In this document: one piece after another, positions 29,905 to 37,079 of the stretch | Layout: each line of letters opens with the position of its first letter | How positions within the stretch are numbered: the first letter of the stretch is position 1 | Origin: an uncultured Clostridia bacterium | Lineage (GTDB): Bacteria; Bacillota; Clostridia; TANB77; CAG-465 | Reading direction: 5' to 3' | Length of the DNA: 64,000 nucleotides | NCBI GenBank assembly: GCA_947628005.1 | Contig: CANQYI010000003.1 | Coordinates: 134,077-198,076, forward strand | Translations under genes and position numbers: made by a program | Notes under the pieces: model-generated | What the model was told of the DNA's origin: nothing | The model's database searches: none | The model's input: only the letters and a program-made list of their open reading frames with translations

Positions 29905-30609
29905 TTAAATAATGTCAAAATATCTTATATTATCTTTTAAGTACTTCTTACATTCATTATAGTCTGGAATGTATTTTTCTACTAGATTCCAAAACTTTTG
30001 ACTATGGTTAGGTTCTTTAAAGTGGCATAACTCATGTACAATTATATAGTCAGCTACATGAGATGGCAACATTGCAAGTTTTAAATTAAAATTTAAGCTT
30101 CTCTTTGATTTTACGGCACTTCCCCAAACTGTTTTTTGACATTTAATTGAGAGGCTGTTATATCTTTCATTCATAATATTACACCAATAAATAAGTCTTT
30201 TTTCAAGCAATATTTTGGTATTTTCTTTGAGGAAACTTTTTAAATTGCTTATAAAATAAGAGTAGCATTCACTATCGTTTACAGAGTTTGGAATATAAAA
30301 TAAAATTTCATCATCATTTAAATCTAACATAAATTGACTGAAATTCCAATATACATAATTTAATTTTCTCAAAGTTCCAAATATAAGTATTTCTTCTTTA
30401 TTATCTACTTGAATTTTTCTATAAATTTCATAAATCTTTTCCTTATTTTCAAGTAAAAATTCATTTGCCCTATTTTTAGATATTCTTTCAGGCTTAGATA
30501 ATCTTATATAATTTTTATTAACAGATATACTAATTCTTTTATAATTTCTACTAGAAACAATTTTTATTGGAAGTTTTACATCTTTATAGTCGAAATATTC
30601 ATGATTCAT
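29905..30609 (-). CDS. DUF45/YgjP-like (M48-type) metal-dependent hydrolase
   Basis: HELCHF HExxH motif near the C-terminus and overall about 230-aa architecture typical of DUF45/SprT-like proteins. Confidence 0.65.
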   Translation of the reverse strand: MNHEYFDYKDVKLPIKIVSSRNYKRISISVNKNYIRLSKPERISKNRANEFLLENKEKIYEIYRKIQVDNKEEILIFGTLRKLNYVYWNFSQFMLDLNDDEILFYIPNSVNDSECYSYFISNLKSFLKENTKILLEKRLIYWCNIMNERYNSLSIKCQKTVWGSAVKSKRSLNFNLKLAMLPSHVADYIIVHELCHFKEPNHSQKFWNLVEKYIPDYNECKKYLKDNIRYFDII

Positions 30610-30727
30610 ATTGTACCTCTAACGTTTTTAGATTATCATATTTACTTGCTTTTTTCAATAGCTTGAGAGGCAATTATTTTAACTAATACTAAGTACTGAA
30701 AAAGTATAAATATTTATAAAAAAAGTG

Positions 30728-30756
30728 TTGACAAAAATATTATTTTCGGTTATAAT
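30728..30756 (+). promoter_or_regulatory. sigma-A promoter of the tRNA operon (TTGACA-17-TATAAT)
   Basis: Consensus hexamers with 17-nt spacer, 20 nt upstream of tRNA-Val. Confidence 0.6.
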
Positions 30757-30775
30757 TGTATATGTCAACGAAAGT

Positions 30776-30851
30776 GGGCGCTTAGCTCAGTTGGGAGAGC
30801 ATCTGCCTTACAAGCAGGGGGTCACAGGTTCGAGCCCTGTAGTGCCCACCA
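30776..30851 (+). tRNA. tRNA-Val (anticodon TAC), CCA encoded
   Basis: Cloverleaf folds by hand: acceptor gggcgct/agtgccc, anticodon loop cTTACAa, T-loop GGTTCGAGC. Confidence 0.85.
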
Positions 30852-30871
30852 CTTTTTTTATTATTGTTTTT

Positions 30872-30948
30872 GGCCTGGTAGTTCAGTTGGTTAGAACGCT
30901 AGCCTGTCACGCTAGAGGTCGTGGGTTCGAGCCCCATTCAGGTCGCCA
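30872..30948 (+). tRNA. tRNA-Asp (anticodon GTC), CCA encoded
   Basis: Acceptor ggcctgg/tcaggtc, anticodon loop cTGTCAc, T-loop GGTTCGAGC. Confidence 0.85.
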
Positions 30949-30961
30949 TTTTTTTATAAGT

Positions 30962-31037
<76 letters not shown>

Positions 31038-31047
31038 TTATTTTTTT

Positions 31048-31123
31048 GCGGGAGTAGCTCAGTTGATAGAGCGCCGCCTTGCCAAGGCGGAGGTCGCGGG
31101 TTTGAGCCCCGTCTCCCGCTCCA
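31048..31123 (+). tRNA. tRNA-Gly (anticodon GCC), CCA encoded
   Basis: Acceptor gcgggag/ctcccgc, anticodon loop tTGCCAa, T-loop GGTTTGAGC. Confidence 0.85.
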
Positions 31124-31173
31124 TTTGTTTTATAAGTTCTATTTATTTTATTTATGAATATACTTTATTAAAT

Positions 31174-31247
31174 GGCGCCATAGCCAAGTGGTAAGGCACG
31201 GCTCTGCAAAAGCCTGATCATCAGTTCAAATCTGATTGGCGCCTCCA
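31174..31247 (+). tRNA. tRNA-Cys (anticodon GCA), CCA encoded
   Basis: Acceptor ggcgcca/tggcgcc, anticodon loop cTGCAAa, T-loop AGTTCAAATCT. Confidence 0.85.
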
Positions 31248-31251
31248 AACG

Positions 31252-31306
31252 ACAAAAAATGACAAATTTCTAACATTAAGTTAAAATTTTGTCATTTTTT
31301 TATTCT
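31252..31306. terminator. bidirectional terminator-like hairpin after the tRNA cluster (left copy of a duplicated hairpin)
   Basis: acaaaaaatgacaaa ... tttgtcattttttt. Near-identical arms recur at 35601-35645. Confidence 0.5.
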
Positions 31307-31398
31307 CTTAGAGCTATCTGCATTTTACATTAAAACTCTCTTTTTGTTTTTCATTGAAATATATTGTAATTTTTTGTATTTTTATATAATCTTCCAGT

Positions 31399-31423
31399 AG
31401 TTACATTAAAATTACATTAAAAA
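31399..31423. repeat. 25-bp direct repeat AGTTACATTAAAATTACATTAAAAA, left copy
   Basis: Perfect identity with 32798-32822. Internal tandem TTACATTAAA x2. Additional single TTACATTAAA copies at about 31328 and 31435. Confidence 0.8.
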
Positions 31424-31498
31424 AACGCTTTTATTACATTAAAGATTGAAAAAACATTCAATTTTGGGTTTACTCATTTGACTTATACATATTATAAT

Positions 31499-32128
31499 TT
31501 ATCTTTCCTCTCCATACTCATATTCTTCATATTTATTAATTGCTCTTTTTAGACCTGCTTCTTTTGCTATTCTCAAATAGTGTTCTGATAATCTATAATT
31601 TCTATCTGTTCCTTTCCCATTATAGTAAAAGTTCGCACCCAAATCATATATGGCTGCAATGTGTCCTTTATTTGCACATTCTTTAATTATTTCAAATGCT
31701 TTTTTATAATCTTTTTCTATTCCACCTAGTCCAAAATAATAATATGCACCTGTAACAAATTGAGCATAAATTCTTTCAATTTCACCTATGTCTTGTGAAT
31801 TTATTAAACTTATTATTTGTGGATAAGCTTGTTGTAACAATTTGTTTCCCTTTTCTTCATCTATTGGTAGTGCATTCCCTAAACCTAATTCATAAGAAAT
31901 TCCTAAAGAATATTTGCATAATGGATAATCTAAATGATAACCTTTTTTATAGTATTCCAACGCAATATCATAATCTTGCTCAGCTCCATTTTCTTCTAAG
32001 TCATAACTTCGACCTAAAATATAATAAGAAAACCCATCTTGTTCTTTTTTCAATTTATCTAAATCAAATTTAATTATATCCATATATTTTCTCCTTAAAT
32101 TGCTATATTTTATAATAATGTTATCCAA
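31499..32128 (-). CDS. Sel1-like (TPR-family) repeat protein
   Basis: Repeated A-x-x-Y-Y-x-x-G / GLG / NKGHIAAIYDLGANFYYNGKG Sel1 repeat signatures. Start overlaps the 3' end of the upstream toxin gene by 19 nt. Confidence 0.65.
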   Translation of the reverse strand: MDNIIIKYSNLRRKYMDIIKFDLDKLKKEQDGFSYYILGRSYDLEENGAEQDYDIALEYYKKGYHLDYPLCKYSLGISYELGLGNALPIDEEKGNKLLQQAYPQIISLINSQDIGEIERIYAQFVTGAYYYFGLGGIEKDYKKAFEIIKECANKGHIAAIYDLGANFYYNGKGTDRNYRLSEHYLRIAKEAGLKRAINKYEEYEYGEER

Positions 32129-32424
32129 TTTCTTCTTCCATACATAACTCTTACAATTTGTATATTTTCATCATTTATTCTATAAAAAACAATATAATTA
32201 TCAACTACTAGTTTCCTAATTTTAAATCTTTTGATTATATCATCATCTATAACAGAATACATTTCTGGATTATCTTTTAAACTATCTATTTCATTTTTTA
32301 TGTTTGTAATTAATTTTTGAGCAGTATTAGGTTCTTGTAAATTATATTTAATGTATCGTTTTATATCTATTAAATCTTGTTTTGCTTCCATTGAATATTC
32401 TATATTATATTTTTTCAAAGGCAA
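32110..32424 (-). CDS. type II toxin, RelE/ParE family
   Basis: About 100-aa basic protein with RelE/ParE-like C-terminus (IVFYRINDENIQIVRVMYGRRN), immediately downstream of a Phd/YefM antitoxin gene. Confidence 0.7.
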   Translation of the reverse strand: MPLKKYNIEYSMEAKQDLIDIKRYIKYNLQEPNTAQKLITNIKNEIDSLKDNPEMYSVIDDDIIKRFKIRKLVVDNYIVFYRINDENIQIVRVMYGRRNWITLL

Positions 32425-32438
32425 ATCCTCTTTCTTTT

Positions 32439-32693
32439 TTAAATTTTATCTAACTCGTCAAAAACTTCTTTTGATGAATATTTTTTGCCATTTTCTAATG
32501 ACTTAATTCCTTTTTCTAATTCTTTATATAAAGCATACTTATCTGTTAAAAGTTCGTATAACTCAATACTCATTACTGCTAAATCTCCTGCACCATTTTT
32601 AGTAATATATACTGGACTATTTGTTTGATGGCAAATTGTAGAAATTTCATTATAATTATTTCTTAAATCAGAACTTGGTCTAATAATTGGCAT
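32439..32693 (-). CDS. type II antitoxin, Phd/YefM family
   Basis: MPIIRPSSDLRNNYNEIS...PVYITKNG...AVMSIELYE is a classic Phd/YefM N-terminus. ATG at 32693 7 nt after GGAGGTG. TTGACT-17-TAAAAT promoter at about 32725-32760 (minus). Confidence 0.75.
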   Translation of the reverse strand: MPIIRPSSDLRNNYNEISTICHQTNSPVYITKNGAGDLAVMSIELYELLTDKYALYKELEKGIKSLENGKKYSSKEVFDELDKI

Positions 32694-32797
32694 ACTAAAC
32701 ACCTCCATAAATATTATATACATATTTTATCAAAATATTGATATATAGTCAATGCTTTTCAATTAATTTTATTTTTAAAATTTACAAACGCAATCCT

Positions 32798-32822
32798 AGT
32801 TACATTAAAATTACATTAAAAA
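32798..32822. repeat. 25-bp direct repeat AGTTACATTAAAATTACATTAAAAA, right copy
   Basis: Identical to 31399-31423. Lies about 105 nt upstream of the antitoxin start. Confidence 0.8.
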
Positions 32823-33196
32823 TTGCTTTCTGTATCTTAAAAGTGTTGATATTACTATAACTTCAAAAATATTAAACCGGAGTACGCCTCCAAAGTATTT
32901 TTTAAATTTCACAGATTTTTAAGAATTCTGTGAAATTTTCATATCTGTCCAAAGCTTTTTATATCAAGCATTTCAATTTTTTATAATTTTCCCAAACTAC
33001 ATTAACATTTTTACAAATATTAACAAATAATGATTTTTATATATAAAAATACTCCTCCAGTTAGAATACTTGGTTTTGATTTTAATATTTTTTATGAAAT
33101 ATATAATATAATTTATTTGTATAAATATATTGGCTTTTACAAACGTTCGCTTTATGATGTAAGCAACTTTTACACAAGGAAGGAATTAAGTTATTT

Positions 33197-34159
33197 ATGA
33201 ATAATCTCACTAATATTGAGCCAGTAAATAAAGAATTAAATTTAGTAAAATATGAAACAGTTGATATTAAGAATTTAATTTATTGCATTAGAGGAAAACA
33301 AGTTATGCTAGATAGCGACGTAGCAATGTTATATCATTATCAAACTAAAAGAATAAATGAAACAGTTATTAGAAATAAGGAAAGATTTCCAGAAAATTTT
33401 TGTTTTCAGTTAACAGAAGATGAGTTTTCATGTTTAAGGTCGCAATTTGCGACTTCAAACGATAAAGAAAATAACTGGTCGCAATTTGCGACCAGTTCAA
33501 AAAATGATAATAGCAAGCATAGAGGAAAAAAATATTTGCCATATGTCTTTACAGAGCAAGGTATAGCAATGCTTTCTGGTCTATTAAAAAATGAAATTGC
33601 AGTTCAAGTAAGTATAAACATAATGAATGCATTTGTTGAAATGAGAAAATTTATTTCCATAAATGGACAAGTTTTTGAAAGATTAACAAATGTTGAATAT
33701 AGATTATTAGAACATGATAATAAATTCAATCAAATATTTAATGAATTACAAAAGAATAAAGAACAAGAATTTAAACAAAAAATATTTTTTAAGGGACAAA
33801 TATGGGATAGCTATGAACTAATAATTGATATTATAAAAACAGCACAAAGTAAAATAGTAATAATAGATAATTATATAGACGATACTATTCTTAAAATGAT
33901 TCAAAAGAAAAATAAAAATGTTGAAGTAATTATTTTAACTTCACAAAATTGTAATATAACAAAGCTAGATATTAAGAAGTTTAATGAACAATATGGAGTA
34001 TTAAAAATAGAACTAACAGATAAATTTCATGATAGATTTATTATTATAGATAATAAAGAGCTTTATCATTGTGGAGCATCACTCAAAGATTTGGGTAAAA
34101 AATGTTTTGGAATTAACAAAATAGAAGAAATAGAATTTATAGAAAATATAATTAAATAA
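33197..34159 (+). CDS. ORF6N/ORF6C-domain protein (phage antirepressor-like DNA-binding protein)
   Basis: N-terminus IYCIRGKQVMLDSDVAMLYHYQTKRINETVIRNKERFPENFCFQLTEDEF...LRSQFATS...KYLPYVFTEQGIAMLSGLLKN matches the ORF6N domain. The C-terminal about 170 aa resembles the ORF6C partner domain. The SQFATS segment is internally duplicated. Confidence 0.7.
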   Translation: MNNLTNIEPVNKELNLVKYETVDIKNLIYCIRGKQVMLDSDVAMLYHYQTKRINETVIRNKERFPENFCFQLTEDEFSCLRSQFATSNDKENNWSQFATSSKNDNSKHRGKKYLPYVFTEQGIAMLSGLLKNEIAVQVSINIMNAFVEMRKFISINGQVFERLTNVEYRLLEHDNKFNQIFNELQKNKEQEFKQKIFFKGQIWDSYELIIDIIKTAQSKIVIIDNYIDDTILKMIQKKNKNVEVIILTSQNCNITKLDIKKFNEQYGVLKIELTDKFHDRFIIIDNKELYHCGASLKDLGKKCFGINKIEEIEFIENIIK

Positions 34160-34359
34160 GTGGCTTAAAATACGTTGAAAAAATCAACAATATATGCTAT
34201 AATAATATCGTTATCTGTATCATGAACTACTATGATTATAGTAACTATTTAGTAATGATTGAAACTATATTTTTTGTTTCTATTAAAACTAAACAAAACC
34301 TTAATACAAGCATACTGCCATAGTGCTTGTAAAAAAATAATTTTATGGAGGTGTTAATT

Positions 34360-35106
34360 ATGGCAGAAAGAGTATCAAAAGAAGTTCCAATTGCGGAACG
34401 GTTAATCGAGTTTGGAAAGGATGATTTCAATGAGAATTTTTCACTTTCTGAAATTTCTGAAAGTTTAATTACTCAGAAAATACTTGAAGAGTTTGCAGAA
34501 AATGCTTTAGTTCTTATTGACGGTACAGACATTCTGCAGTACGCAAATGAATATCCTATTGTTGTATATCAGTGCAACGAAAATATTTGCTATGAAAGTA
34601 TAACACCTGAACCTCGTCTCAACAGCTTTGTACTGAGCATTGCGGTATCAACAGGTGTGAGTGGCAAAAGATTTTCGGTTAGCTCTGGAAAAATGAAAGC
34701 TGACATTAACGATTTCGATACCATTGCTTACTATGAAGATTCAGTTGGCATCAAGCATAAGATTATTCAGTATGACATTTGCAAGTTCTTGCTGAAAAAG
34801 CCTAAGCTTGTTGTCTCTGAGGAAGGTGTTCTTGTTTTCTTTACTGAAGACCAAATTTTAGCAACAATTGACTGTCAGCAGTATGTATGGGTTCGTTGGG
34901 ACGACATCATTAAAAATTGCACAAGCATTGAAAACATTACCGCATATCACGAGTATTGTGAAGTAACTCTTGTTGAGGGCGAAGATGTTTATGATAATTT
35001 AGGTAAAATTTTTAAAAAAGCCCCCAGACACGTTTTAAATCTGAACTTCAATTTGAAGGTAGCAGACCATAACATGATAAATCCTGAATTTACGAAAAAA
35101 TCGTAA
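34360..35106 (+). CDS. hypothetical protein (249 aa), GC-atypical (about 37-38% GC) cargo gene
   Basis: ATG 6 nt after GGAGGTG. Own TTGAAA-17-TATAAT promoter at 34175-34203 with a roughly 150-nt leader. No motif recognised. Codon usage differs from the flanks. Confidence 0.5.
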   Translation: MAERVSKEVPIAERLIEFGKDDFNENFSLSEISESLITQKILEEFAENALVLIDGTDILQYANEYPIVVYQCNENICYESITPEPRLNSFVLSIAVSTGVSGKRFSVSSGKMKADINDFDTIAYYEDSVGIKHKIIQYDICKFLLKKPKLVVSEEGVLVFFTEDQILATIDCQQYVWVRWDDIIKNCTSIENITAYHEYCEVTLVEGEDVYDNLGKIFKKAPRHVLNLNFNLKVADHNMINPEFTKKS

Positions 35107-35179
35107 TCAAAAAAGCTCTAAGATACTACAAACTCCTCAATCACAATATGTGGTTGGGGATGTTTGCATTTAATTATTT

Positions 35180-35464
35180 TTATATTAGTGTATCAGTTTG
35201 TCTAAGTTTACCATCTTTTGCTCTCATTTTTAACTGTACGATATTTTCGTACAGTTGACTACATTTTGTAATCAACTCAGATCCTTCTTTTTTCAATCTT
35301 AACTTTAATACAGGCCAATATTTTCTTGGTTTATTACTATCTGTTAATGCTGATATAACATCAACAACACTAAAATAATAATCTTCTTTTGTAGAATCCC
35401 AAATACTCCTAATTTCCTTACCTTCAAATAAATTTGAAATTGTATCTAACTTATTGCTTTCCAA
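35180..35464 (-). CDS. Bro-N/DinD-like domain protein (short, possibly a remnant)
   Basis: LFEGKEIRSIWDSTKEDYYFSVVDVISALTDSNKPRKYW matches the Bro-N / KilA-N-like pattern (F.G..IR.i..dge.wF...DV..aL). Best start is the TTG at 35464, 7 nt after AGGAGG. Confidence 0.5.
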   Translation of the reverse strand: MESNKLDTISNLFEGKEIRSIWDSTKEDYYFSVVDVISALTDSNKPRKYWPVLKLRLKKEGSELITKCSQLYENIVQLKMRAKDGKLRQTDTLI

Positions 35465-35597
35465 TATACATCCTCCTTTATTAAAAATATAAATCACTAA
35501 TAACTGTAGATATTATGCAAAATATCTGTTCCGTTTTCAATATTTTCATATAACTTTTTAATAATTTATTTTTTTATTAGGAAATAGTGCACACTCA

Positions 35598-35645
35598 CAA
35601 ACAAAAAATGACAAAACTACAACTCAGTGTGTTTTGTCATTTTTT
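35598..35645. terminator. terminator hairpin of the GGDEF-EAL gene (right copy of the duplicated hairpin)
   Basis: acaaaaaatgacaaaac-N13-gttttgtcatttttt. Arms nearly identical to those of 31252-31306. Confidence 0.55.
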
Positions 35646-37079
35646 CTATTTTATATTTTTTACTTTACTATTAAATTTTTCATAATTTTCTAATAATTCT
35701 TCTAATCTATCAATGTCAACTGGATCTGCTATTAATCTTCCTTGTATTTTTGAAATATTACTTTTTAAAATTTCTCTTAATTCAACGTCATTTTCAATAT
35801 TTGTAACTACTACGTGATATCTTAAATCTCTTGCAAGTTTTATTATATCTTTTAATAAATTCTTTTCATTTTCATTATTTTCTGATATATAATTTGCTGA
35901 TACTCTAAACTCATCTATTGGTAAACCTCTAAATAGTGTTAGATTTTCATATCTTAATTCTATATTATTTATTCCTATATCAGCACCGCAAGTTTTTAAT
36001 CTCTCTGTTAAAACTTTAAAATCATCTATTTCTTTTACATTAATATTATTAGTAAGTTGTAAACAAATTTCTCCACTATTTATTTGATATTCATCTAATA
36101 TACTGCACAATTTATCTACAAAATCTTTTCTTTTTGCATGCTTATTTGATATATTCATTGCAAAAGATACATTATTATAACCCTTAAATTTCATTTCATC
36201 TAGTTTTTTGCAAATCGTATCTAATACCAATTGATCTAACTTTATTATAAGTCCCATCTCTTCTGCTTGCTTTATAAAGTATTCTGATTGAATAATTCCT
36301 AGTACAGGGTGTTTCCAGTATAAAAGTGCCTCAAATGATATATTAGTTTTGTCTAAGACATTTATTCTTGGCTGTAATAAAACGCCAAATTCATTATTAT
36401 CATAAGCCTGTTTTAAGTCTTTTTCCATTTTAGTTTTATTTTCAAGTTTTGCCTTTAAAACTTTGTTATGAAAATAATAATTATTTTTTCCATGTTCTTT
36501 TATATAGTACATTGCGTCATCTGCATAATTAATTAAATCTTTCTTATTATTGGCATCTTCTGGATAAATTGCTATTCCAAGGCTATACTCAAGATTAATA
36601 CTATTATTTTCAATTATAAGGGGAATTTCAAATTCTTTTTTCAAGTCATTTAAAATACTAGTTATATCTTCAGTAGTTTTTATATTTTCCATTACAACTG
36701 CAAACTCGTCTCCACCCAATCTATATGATTTTGCATTTTGTGGAAGACTTCTTTCAAATATATTAGATAGCTCAATCAAAACTTTATCGCCTGCATCATG
36801 TCCCATTGTATCATTAATTTGTTTAAATCCATCTAAATCCATAAAACATACAGCAAACTTTTCCTTCTTAGATATAAGTTTATCTAATACATCTAAAAAT
36901 AAATGTCTATTTCCTCTTCCTGTAAGTGGATCAGTATATGCTTGTCTTTTTGTTAATTTATTTTCCTTTAGAGTACCTGATACATAAATTCTATATATTA
37001 ACATACCTAAAGCAACTAAAACTACGCCTTTAATAATACCATATATTATTTCTATATTCACTATTATCCCCCTTATCAT
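35646..37079 (-). CDS. membrane-anchored GGDEF-EAL protein (diguanylate cyclase/phosphodiesterase)
   Basis: N-terminal TM, GGDEF motif (RLGGDEFAVV) and EAL motif (FEALLYWKHP) with conserved downstream blocks. Start may be the ATG at 37079 or the GTG 18 nt downstream that follows GGGGGA. Confidence 0.85.
   Translation of the reverse strand: MIRGIIVNIEIIYGIIKGVVLVALGMLIYRIYVSGTLKENKLTKRQAYTDPLTGRGNRHLFLDVLDKLISKKEKFAVCFMDLDGFKQINDTMGHDAGDKVLIELSNIFERSLPQNAKSYRLGGDEFAVVMENIKTTEDITSILNDLKKEFEIPLIIENNSINLEYSLGIAIYPEDANNKKDLINYADDAMYYIKEHGKNNYYFHNKVLKAKLENKTKMEKDLKQAYDNNEFGVLLQPRINVLDKTNISFEALLYWKHPVLGIIQSEYFIKQAEEMGLIIKLDQLVLDTICKKLDEMKFKGYNNVSFAMNISNKHAKRKDFVDKLCSILDEYQINSGEICLQLTNNINVKEIDDFKVLTERLKTCGADIGINNIELRYENLTLFRGLPIDEFRVSANYISENNENEKNLLKDIIKLARDLRYHVVVTNIENDVELREILKSNISKIQGRLIADPVDIDRLEELLENYEKFNSKVKNIK

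Follow-up and report, generated by a model that had tools for sequence, protein, structure and literature searches.

The 64,000-nt stretch of DNA analyzed here (the window) belongs to contig CANQYI010000003.1 of an uncultured Clostridia bacterium with a genomic G+C content of 26.6%. Immediately downstream of a tRNA cluster it contains three genes bracketed by two perfect direct repeats, a segment which we interpret as a small element integrated at tRNA-Cys. The repeat, TAGTTACATTAAAATTACATTAAAAA, is 26 nt long and occupies positions 31398-31423 and 32797-32822, with identity ending sharply on both sides. The earlier note on this DNA had reported an exact 25-mer at 31399-31423 and 32798-32822, which lies one base inside the 26-mer, and six copies of a 10-mer including two single ones; all of these are present, the single copies at 31325 and 31434. 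Each 26-mer is a tandem direct repeat with a period of 11 nt, lacks an inverted partner and contains two copies of the 10-mer TTACATTAAA (called box for simplicity, and doublet where two boxes form the tandem). The six boxes of the 64 kb (start positions 31325, 31401, 31412, 31434, 32800 and 32811) are all on the + strand and within 1.5 kb (31325-32820), compared to 1.9 copies expected in the whole window. Overlooked in the note were the tRNA cluster to the left of the repeats and a copy of CGCCTCCAAA, the 3' end of tRNA-Cys, to the right of the right doublet. CGCCTCCAAA occurs only twice in the 64 kb, at 31240-31249 and 32885-32894 on the same strand, and these two copies are called the left and right core. 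An Rfam search of 30600-35800 gave no RNA families beyond the five tRNAs. The features of the locus are listed below; attL and attR denote the left and right attachment (att) sites, P and P' their arms, A1, A3 and A5 alignments, and L followed by a number a related locus.

30776-31247, + strand: tRNA cluster Val-Asp-Phe-Gly-Cys, ending 153 nt before the left doublet
31174..31247, + strand: tRNA-Cys(GCA), last gene of the cluster and putative integration target (ARAGORN; Rfam tRNA, 63 bits)
31240..31249, + strand: left core CGCCTCCAAA (tRNA-Cys 3' end plus 2 nt), putative attL crossover region
31254..31301, + strand: T1, hairpin terminator after the tRNA (recognized from its sequence), putative part of the element-derived P' arm
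31325..31334, + strand: box 1 of the P' arm, TTACATTAAA, the sole box kept in L021
31398..31423, + strand: left 26-mer with boxes 2 and 3 (31401-31421), P' arm; distance from the tRNA end 153 nt
31434..31443, + strand: box 4, inner end of the P' arm, right after which relatives split into two cargo types (A3)
31499..32083, - strand: Sel1-repeat protein gene, variable cargo (Pfam PF08238, E 5e-16)
32110..32424, - strand: ParE-family toxin gene (Pfam PF05016, E 4e-17; phrog_2455)
32439..32693, - strand: Phd/YefM antitoxin gene (Pfam PF02604, E 4e-9)
32724..32752, - strand: predicted promoter of the toxin-antitoxin operon (TTGACT, 17 nt, TG-TAAAAT; consensus scan)
32797..32822, + strand: right 26-mer, box doublet (32800-32820), P arm of the putative attR, homologous to the position after the integrase stop codon in L066 and L068
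32846..32857, + strand: TTGATATTACTA, second invariant motif of tRNA-Cys-type P arms (invariant in 9/9 A1 sequences)
32885..32894, + strand: right core CGCCTCCAAA (partial tRNA-Cys 3' end), putative attR crossover region
32904..32943, + strand: T2, hairpin terminator, directly after tRNA-Cys in unoccupied genomes (A5)

Four boxes are located 78-196 nt to the right of the left core and the doublet 65 nt to the left of the right core. Only Sel1, ParE and Phd are encoded in the 1645 bp from 31240 to 32885, and tblastn with three members of the integrase family described below found no integrase homologue in the 64-kb window. Judged from the sequence, the six boxes are very probably arm-type protein-binding sites in the attL and attR of a small element which was integrated at tRNA-Cys by a tyrosine integrase. 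By the same evidence the element is an integrase-less, att-flanked island resembling a cis-mobilizable element (CIME), and the first of two tandem remnants. The note's proposal of an attL/attR-like scar was thus half right: the repeats do lie within both att sites, but the putative crossover regions are the cores, which lie beyond the 26-mers by 150 nt on the left and by 65 nt on the right. Its other proposal, direct-repeat binding sites for the antitoxin, named the appropriate kind of site and the wrong protein, as boxes occur without the toxin-antitoxin pair and vary with the integrase lineage.

An exact scan for the 21-mer TTACATTAAAATTACATTAAA with one genome per species returned 55 stretches. 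Low-GC uncultured Clostridia, many of them from the rabbit gut, account for about 40 of these. About 35 of the roughly 42 low-GC doublets fit one of two tRNA contexts, always in the orientation of the tRNA. In class a (L011, L012, L014, L019, L024, L028, L035, L036, L042, L050 and L052) the doublet is found 69-187 nt, mostly 143-154 nt, downstream of a complete tRNA-Gly(TCC), tRNA-Thr(GGT) or tRNA-Cys in the same orientation. It is usually followed by one to three further boxes and then by an integrase gene on the opposite strand (L014, L024, L035 and L036) or by phage-like genes. In class b (L007, L008, L016, L019, L020-L023, L027, L029, L037-L039, L045, L048 and L049) the doublet precedes a partial tRNA 3' end by 59-88 nt, again in the same orientation. 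Here an integrase gene commonly ends just before the doublet; other neighbors are a phage-type amidase/lysin (L016 and L054) or a Dam-like methylase (L009 and L039). Both classes are represented once in the window, class a with a spacing of 153 nt and class b with one of 65 nt, and the tRNA-to-doublet distance of 143-154 nt recurs at nine other loci at tRNA-Gly, tRNA-Thr and tRNA-Cys. The identical 21-mer is thus found in elements aimed at three different tRNAs. Higher-GC matches outside the Clostridia are devoid of such a tRNA context and look like chance. Of the 26 nt repeated in the window, 23 correspond to the family-wide doublet seen in dozens of genomes (21 of them as an exact match); the extra TAG is due either to coincidence or to a preference at this locus. 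The identity of the two 26-mers reflects strong site conservation across the element family and not a recent duplication.

Both arms of the putative element have counterparts elsewhere. A metagenome scan with the pattern 'doublet, 50-78 nt, GCCTCCA' identified L066-L068, while no tRNA-Cys-type attR was found in viral contigs. In L066 and L068 an integrase of the family (39% identical to that of L045) ends right before the doublet. Alignment A1 places window positions 32797-32895 in register with L066, L068, L015, L020, L021, L022, L027 and L067. Invariant in A1 are the core GCCTCCA, TTGATATTAYTA and the doublet, which are separated by variable spacers, and the columns around TTGATATTACTA vary while TTGATATTACTA itself does not. 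The right core starts 65 nt after the right doublet, a spacing shared by L020, L021, L022 and L027. After the core, at least five unrelated types of flank follow. By this alignment, the right arm of the window is homologous to the integrase-adjacent arm of L066 and L068. The arms of L066 (TTAC boxes) and L080 (TTGC boxes) are unrelated, and the two loci share their sequence from ccgattgtcgcctcca onward; the comparison indicates that the same chromosomal site is occupied by a different element in each of them, joined at the tRNA-Cys end.

On the left side, alignment A3 reveals one module in the window, L028, L042, L052 and L015, consisting of the tRNA-Cys end, T1, a box, 66 nt, the doublet, 12 nt and a further box. 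Immediately past this fourth box (31443) the sequences part into two cargo types. T1 stays together with the arm in L028, L042, L052, L015 and L021, and in L022 it comes after the core of the P arm, so that right arm, core and T1 are contiguous, as the order of an attP (the attachment site of the free element) predicts. L015 contains only the last ~20 nt of tRNA-Cys before the module, which makes the module there an internal att site of a tandem array.

Unoccupied sites were found in L086 and L088, in which a complete tRNA-Cys is directly joined to T2 and the ORF6N region (described below), both of which follow position 32894 in the window (A5). To the left of CGCCTCCAAA these loci contain the tRNA body and the window contains the right arm; to the right of it the sequence is the same. 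By this comparison the core is the junction, and the 26-mer is not. The earlier note had looked to genomes which lack the 1.4-kb segment and retain a single repeat copy; tRNA-Cys sites without the segment do exist, but their junction is CGCCTCCAAA and not a repeat.

The integrase which commonly ends just before the class b doublet has ~465 residues (Pfam PF00589, E 4.5e-21; phrog_1 integrase). In L029, L045 and L049, 4-13 nt separate its stop codon from the doublet, and it also adjoins boxes in L019, L024, L014, L035, L037, L063, L065, L066 and L068; relatives with a family integrase next to the site further include L074-L082. A test independent of the doublet was made by scanning viral contigs with integrase alignment A2. 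The nine loci obtained have the same architecture as those selected by the doublet, with 2-6 boxes in the first 650 nt past the integrase gene versus 0-2 in the remaining 3-13 kb of each. The variants of the box proved informative. In L076 and L079 (tRNA-Gly; integrases 73-75% identical) every box is TTGCATTAAA, in the integrase-side doublet and in the array of the other arm alike, and TTGCATTAAA is likewise found at all boxes of L080 and L082 (tRNA-Cys; integrases 38-39% identical). A third variant is seen in L089, where CTACATTAAY doublets (CTACATTAAC-A-CTACATTAAT) lie ~66 nt before tRNA-Cys-type cores. The TTAC, TTGC and CTAC variants thus each replace all copies within a given element. Since all boxes of an element change together, one element-encoded protein reads them, as is the case for arm-type sites. 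Both independent TTGC lineages have S/G-R in place of K-Q (S or G for K, R for Q) at the same positions of what is predicted to be the central strand of the integrase N-terminus, with L045 as an exception to the pattern; a tie between this switch and box specificity is suggestive only.

Residues 120-465 of the integrase fold like Tn1549 Int (target-normalized TM-score 0.77). The ~120 extra residues at the N-terminus are predicted to form a strand, a Cys-rich insert and a strand-strand-helix unit. Eight cysteines (positions 32-69 of the L045 protein), situated between predicted N-terminal strands and outside any Pfam model, are invariant; the insert is seen in L014, L019, L024, L029, L035, L045, L063, L068 and P0001-P0120. 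The N-terminus is possibly a zinc-ribbon-containing arm-binding domain. The family comprises 197 clusters at E ≤1e-20, all of them generically named, and GenBank phages searched with the integrase for a contiguous attP gave best matches below 28% identity and no close relative. Contig USIO01000002 carries boxes at both ends of a ~37-kb segment between a tRNA-Gly and a partial tRNA-Gly end, which is, going by the arrangement of its parts, the layout of an integrated prophage with attL and attR. A full-text literature search for the box motif returned nothing relevant; box motif, arm geometry and integrase subfamily are previously undescribed.

The element would have been integrated when its attP recombined site-specifically with the tRNA-Cys 3' end, in a reaction catalyzed by a heterobivalent tyrosine integrase of the Clostridial family related to Tn916/Tn1549 Int. 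The resulting attL would comprise the tRNA-Cys core CGCCTCCAAA, T1 and four boxes (one, the doublet and one), and the attR the box doublet, 65 nt containing TTGATATTACTA and the second core. By analogy with lambda and Tn916, the N-terminal domain of the integrase would be placed on the boxes and its core-binding and catalytic domains at the core, and this bridging would fold each arm into the recombination complex. If the island moves at all, a related element would have to provide the integrase in trans, a tRNA-Cys-specific enzyme encoded elsewhere in the genome. Upon excision, the expected junctions would be ...ctgattggCGCCTCCAAAgtatttttt... in the empty chromosome and ...aaccggagtaCGCCTCCAAAcgacaaaaaatgac... 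in the circle.

Several observations weigh against this interpretation or limit it. Most loci were collected by exact match to the doublet and the context counts are biased accordingly, the exceptions being the integrase-based searches. The empty sites come from other species, and there is no strain of the same species without the island: every contig that reaches the region (via an identical YgjP protein) carries it. The ccggagta stretch just left of the right core mismatches the acceptor stem of the present tRNA, and a simple Campbell integration would therefore need a crossover inside CGCCTCCA. The simple model also leaves an extra inverted doublet and pseudo-core of the tRNA-Gly elements (described below) unaccounted for. 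Finally, the N-terminal domain was modeled with a predicted local distance difference test score of 35-75, too low to be compared with the arm-binding domains of lambda or Tn916, and the integrase, as opposed to an excisionase or another element-encoded protein, is taken as the reader of the boxes by analogy.

This last point bears on the alternative that survives best, namely that the boxes, as parts of attL and attR, serve as sites for an excisionase (recombination directionality factor) or some other accessory protein of the element. The coordinated change of the boxes shows only that their reader is element-encoded, an excisionase would co-vary in the same way, and direct repeats with a period of 11 nt are typical of excisionase sites. 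Yet excisionase sites are usually restricted to one arm, as in lambda, and here the boxes are on both arms (2 and 4 copies), like the P and P' arm-type sites of lambda. The integrase, moreover, has an extra N-terminal domain of ~120 residues, a strand of which differs between the TTAC and TTGC lineages in two independent pairs, and no excisionase gene was identified beside the boxes. We consider an excisionase as the reader unlikely.

Far less probable is that the 26-mers are themselves the recombination sites or insertion scar of a cassette spanning 31424-32822. In favor of a scar, the three genes stand between perfect direct repeats with sharp edges, and L021 is without the 109 bp of 31335-31443 (including the left 26-mer), exactly between two single TTACATTAAA boxes, and also without Sel1. 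This deletion indicates that the 10-bp boxes can be substrates for small deletions. Against a scar, the homology with other elements runs 65-75 nt past the right 26-mer up to the core (A1), the empty-site junction is at CGCCTCCAAA (A5), the same 21-mer is found in elements targeting three different tRNAs, and Sel1 was gained or lost independently of the repeats. A target-site duplication or a crossover within the 26-mer was rejected on the A1 homology and the empty-site junction, and so were ends of a miniature inverted-repeat transposable element or insertion sequence, as no inverted repeats were found.

The possibility that the repeats are sites of a host response regulator of the OmpR/WalR type carries equally little weight with us. 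Their reverse complement, TGTAAT-N5-TGTAAC, fits what we take to be the WalR consensus (TGTWAH-N5-TGTWAH) including the 11-nt period, and genes of cell-wall hydrolases are found by the doublet in L008, L016, L050 and L054. These hydrolases, however, look like prophage lysins, with the doublet downstream of their stop codon and before a partial tRNA end, and a host regulator leaves the element-wide switch to TTGC or CTAC and the fixed distances to the tRNAs unexplained.

Operators of the Phd antitoxin or the Phd-ParE complex are less plausible still. The best promoter-like site in the consensus scan has its -35 element at 32752-32747 and its -10 element at 32729-32724 on the - strand, so the right copy is indeed upstream of the toxin-antitoxin promoter, as the earlier note had stated, at 45 nt from the -35 element and not at about 65 nt from the promoter. 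This doublet does not overlap the promoter, and the left copy lies 1.3 kb away, downstream of Sel1. Boxes are present in dozens of loci without Phd-ParE, beside integrase, lysin or methylase genes, and the identical Phd protein is encoded in L086, L090 and L092 with no box nearby. A type II toxin-antitoxin operator was rejected since the sites are direct repeats and not palindromes, lie off the promoter and are not restricted to the Phd-ParE pair. Chance low-complexity AT-rich sequence, which a genome of such low G+C content might suggest, has a negligible probability, as none of 100 shuffled windows contained a 25-mer match even with ≤3 mismatches allowed and different genera have kept the site at fixed positions.

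The cargo of the island is variable. The Sel1 slot after ParE is empty in L021 and L084; L015, L088 and L089 have a gene for a short-chain dehydrogenase there. This independent gain and loss of Sel1 means that the three genes are not one fixed unit, at variance with the antitoxin-toxin-Sel1 module of the note. An identical 84-residue Phd protein is encoded in at least ten otherwise non-syntenic contexts (L083-L092), mostly downstream of tRNA-Gly and tRNA-Cys, and no integrase was found at a distance of up to 8 kb from this gene in the 10 other contexts. These occurrences are consistent with the Phd toxin-antitoxin being a recently spread, multi-copy module. Several assemblies break at the toxin-antitoxin pair (L017, L020, L022 and L071).

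Directly after the island follows, by its sequence features, a second integrase-less remnant, the ORF6N island, which extends from 32895 to about 35600-35650 and contains, besides T2, the following features.

32997..33006, + strand: variant box CTACATTAAC, putative remnant arm of the ORF6N island
33197-34159: ORF6N / anti-repressor-like gene (phrog_4792)
34345-35106: gene without family match
35180-35497, - strand: phrog_15286 gene

L086 and L088 contain two CTACATTAAC boxes at the place of the single one in the window. A homologue of the phrog_15286 gene is located directly left of the doublet in L027 and L047. At the right end of the ORF6N island, a hairpin (35602-35645) has CAAAAAATGACAA in common with T1 (31253-31265). 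Near 35600, where the outer right att site would be expected, no clear core was found; the T1-like hairpin and a weak likeness of cacactcacaaac to cgcctccaaac are unconvincing. In L088 the toxin-antitoxin island comes after the ORF6N island, and the order of the islands is thus not fixed. Tandem arrays occur in L015, L088 and L089. The most extreme accretion is seen in L089, a 9.7-kb contig with six cores of the tRNA-Cys end (GCCTCCA) and arms of two box types, again without an integrase. In L042, a ParE remnant lies within the 720 nt that separate two complete but non-identical tRNA-Cys genes.

Some further features of the arms were noted. Every right arm of the tRNA-Cys type has TTGATATTAYTA (32846-32857 in the window) unchanged, 25 nt downstream of the doublet, and tRNA-Gly-type arms lack it; the motif may be the site of a host bending protein or accessory factor. 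The partial tRNA ends by the right arms are preceded by a complementary stretch, so that a small hairpin resembling an acceptor stem can form (ccGGAG...CTCCaa at 32877-32893 in the window; GCGGGT...ACCCGC in the tRNA-Gly elements L037, L059 and L062); the copy in the window scored as a terminator-like site on the - strand. The tRNA-Gly elements have a second doublet and a pseudo-core, ccgactacccgc (without tcca), which are inverted with respect to the tRNA and located by the integrase gene or by a 47-residue open reading frame (L019, L023, L029, L045, L059/L077, L062, L063, L076 and L079; contigs USIO01000002 and CANSJQ010000001). L077 and L078 differ exactly at the pseudo-core, which indicates that the pseudo-core itself is recombinogenic, and the integrase gene and the 47-residue open reading frame trade ends between USIO01000002 and CANSJQ010000001. 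This suggests two inverted cores or an integrase-mediated inversion in tRNA-Gly elements.

One could go further and regard the island not as debris but as a minimal hitchhiker that has kept a core and all of its arm sites and is excised and re-integrated in trans by tRNA-Cys-specific integrases of phages, whether resident or incoming, in a system with a new zinc-ribbon arm-binding domain and with box specificity (TTAC, TTGC or CTAC) uncoupled from core (tRNA) specificity. The identical antitoxin at tRNA-Cys arrays of many non-syntenic genomes, the different order of the islands in L088 and the perfectly conserved boxes fit such a hitchhiker, an extension which we put forward as a tentative and rather doubtful one. 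For the window itself the outcome is an ordinary one, a toxin-antitoxin pair kept on a decayed integrative element, i.e. a known kind of mobile-element remnant that involves no new mechanism. What was an unexplained perfect repeat acquires a defined anatomy (attL, cargo and attR) at a tRNA-Cys hotspot of an uncultured gut Clostridium. The doublet also provides a boundary rule for prophages and their remnants in low-GC Clostridia, as it follows a tRNA at a distance of ~150 nt or precedes a partial tRNA end by 60-90 nt, and the natural TTAC, TTGC and CTAC variants with their matching integrases are material to study or re-engineer arm-site specificity.

Among known systems, pdif/Xer modules and integron cassettes are likewise small modules, often with toxin-antitoxin genes, that are flanked by short recombination sites and lack a recombinase of their own. 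Their sites, dif-like (11-6-11) in the former and attC hairpins in the latter, are imperfect inverted repeats within which the crossover occurs, whereas the repeats of the window are direct, located away from the putative crossover and tied to an integrase of the lambda/Tn916 type and to a tRNA end. An integron attC or Xer dif-like module was rejected, because the 26-mer lacks an inverted partner and the junctions are elsewhere.

Much closer are the att sites of heterobivalent integrases. Like the arm sites of lambda (P1, P2 and P'1-3), Tn916 (DR2), mv4, L5 and HP1, the boxes are repeats of ~10 bp apart from the core, on both arms and within ~200 bp of a short core; shared as well are the target, a tRNA 3' end, and the position of the integrase gene beside the att site in intact relatives. 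The domain logic of such enzymes, with arm-binding, core-binding and catalytic parts, has been described, and very few att sites have been characterized in the phylum (bioRxiv 10.1101/2023.11.06.565760). The body of the family integrase is structurally closest to Tn1549/Tn916 Int. Differences are that the window holds the sites without the integrase, the complete system being present only in relatives, that the TTACATTAAA doublet with its 11-nt period and arms of 143-154 and 59-88 nt was found in no description (full-text search), that the integrase has an eight-cysteine N-terminus, and that one box serves integrases for three tRNAs.

As a whole, the island is best compared with CIMEs, which together with tandem accretion at tRNA genes are known from the integrative and conjugative or mobilizable elements of Streptococcus (PMC5704250). 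It differs from them in its parent elements, which are prophage-like (lysin, anti-repressor and Dam-like genes) and not conjugative, and in its size of 1.6 kb with a toxin-antitoxin pair and one variable gene as cargo. As in a CIME, the integration genes are lost and attL and attR are kept, with both arms and cores apparently intact, the island lies in tandem with further decayed elements at a tRNA 3' end, and the internal att sites are partial tRNA ends (32885-32894 in the window, L015 and the six cores of L089).

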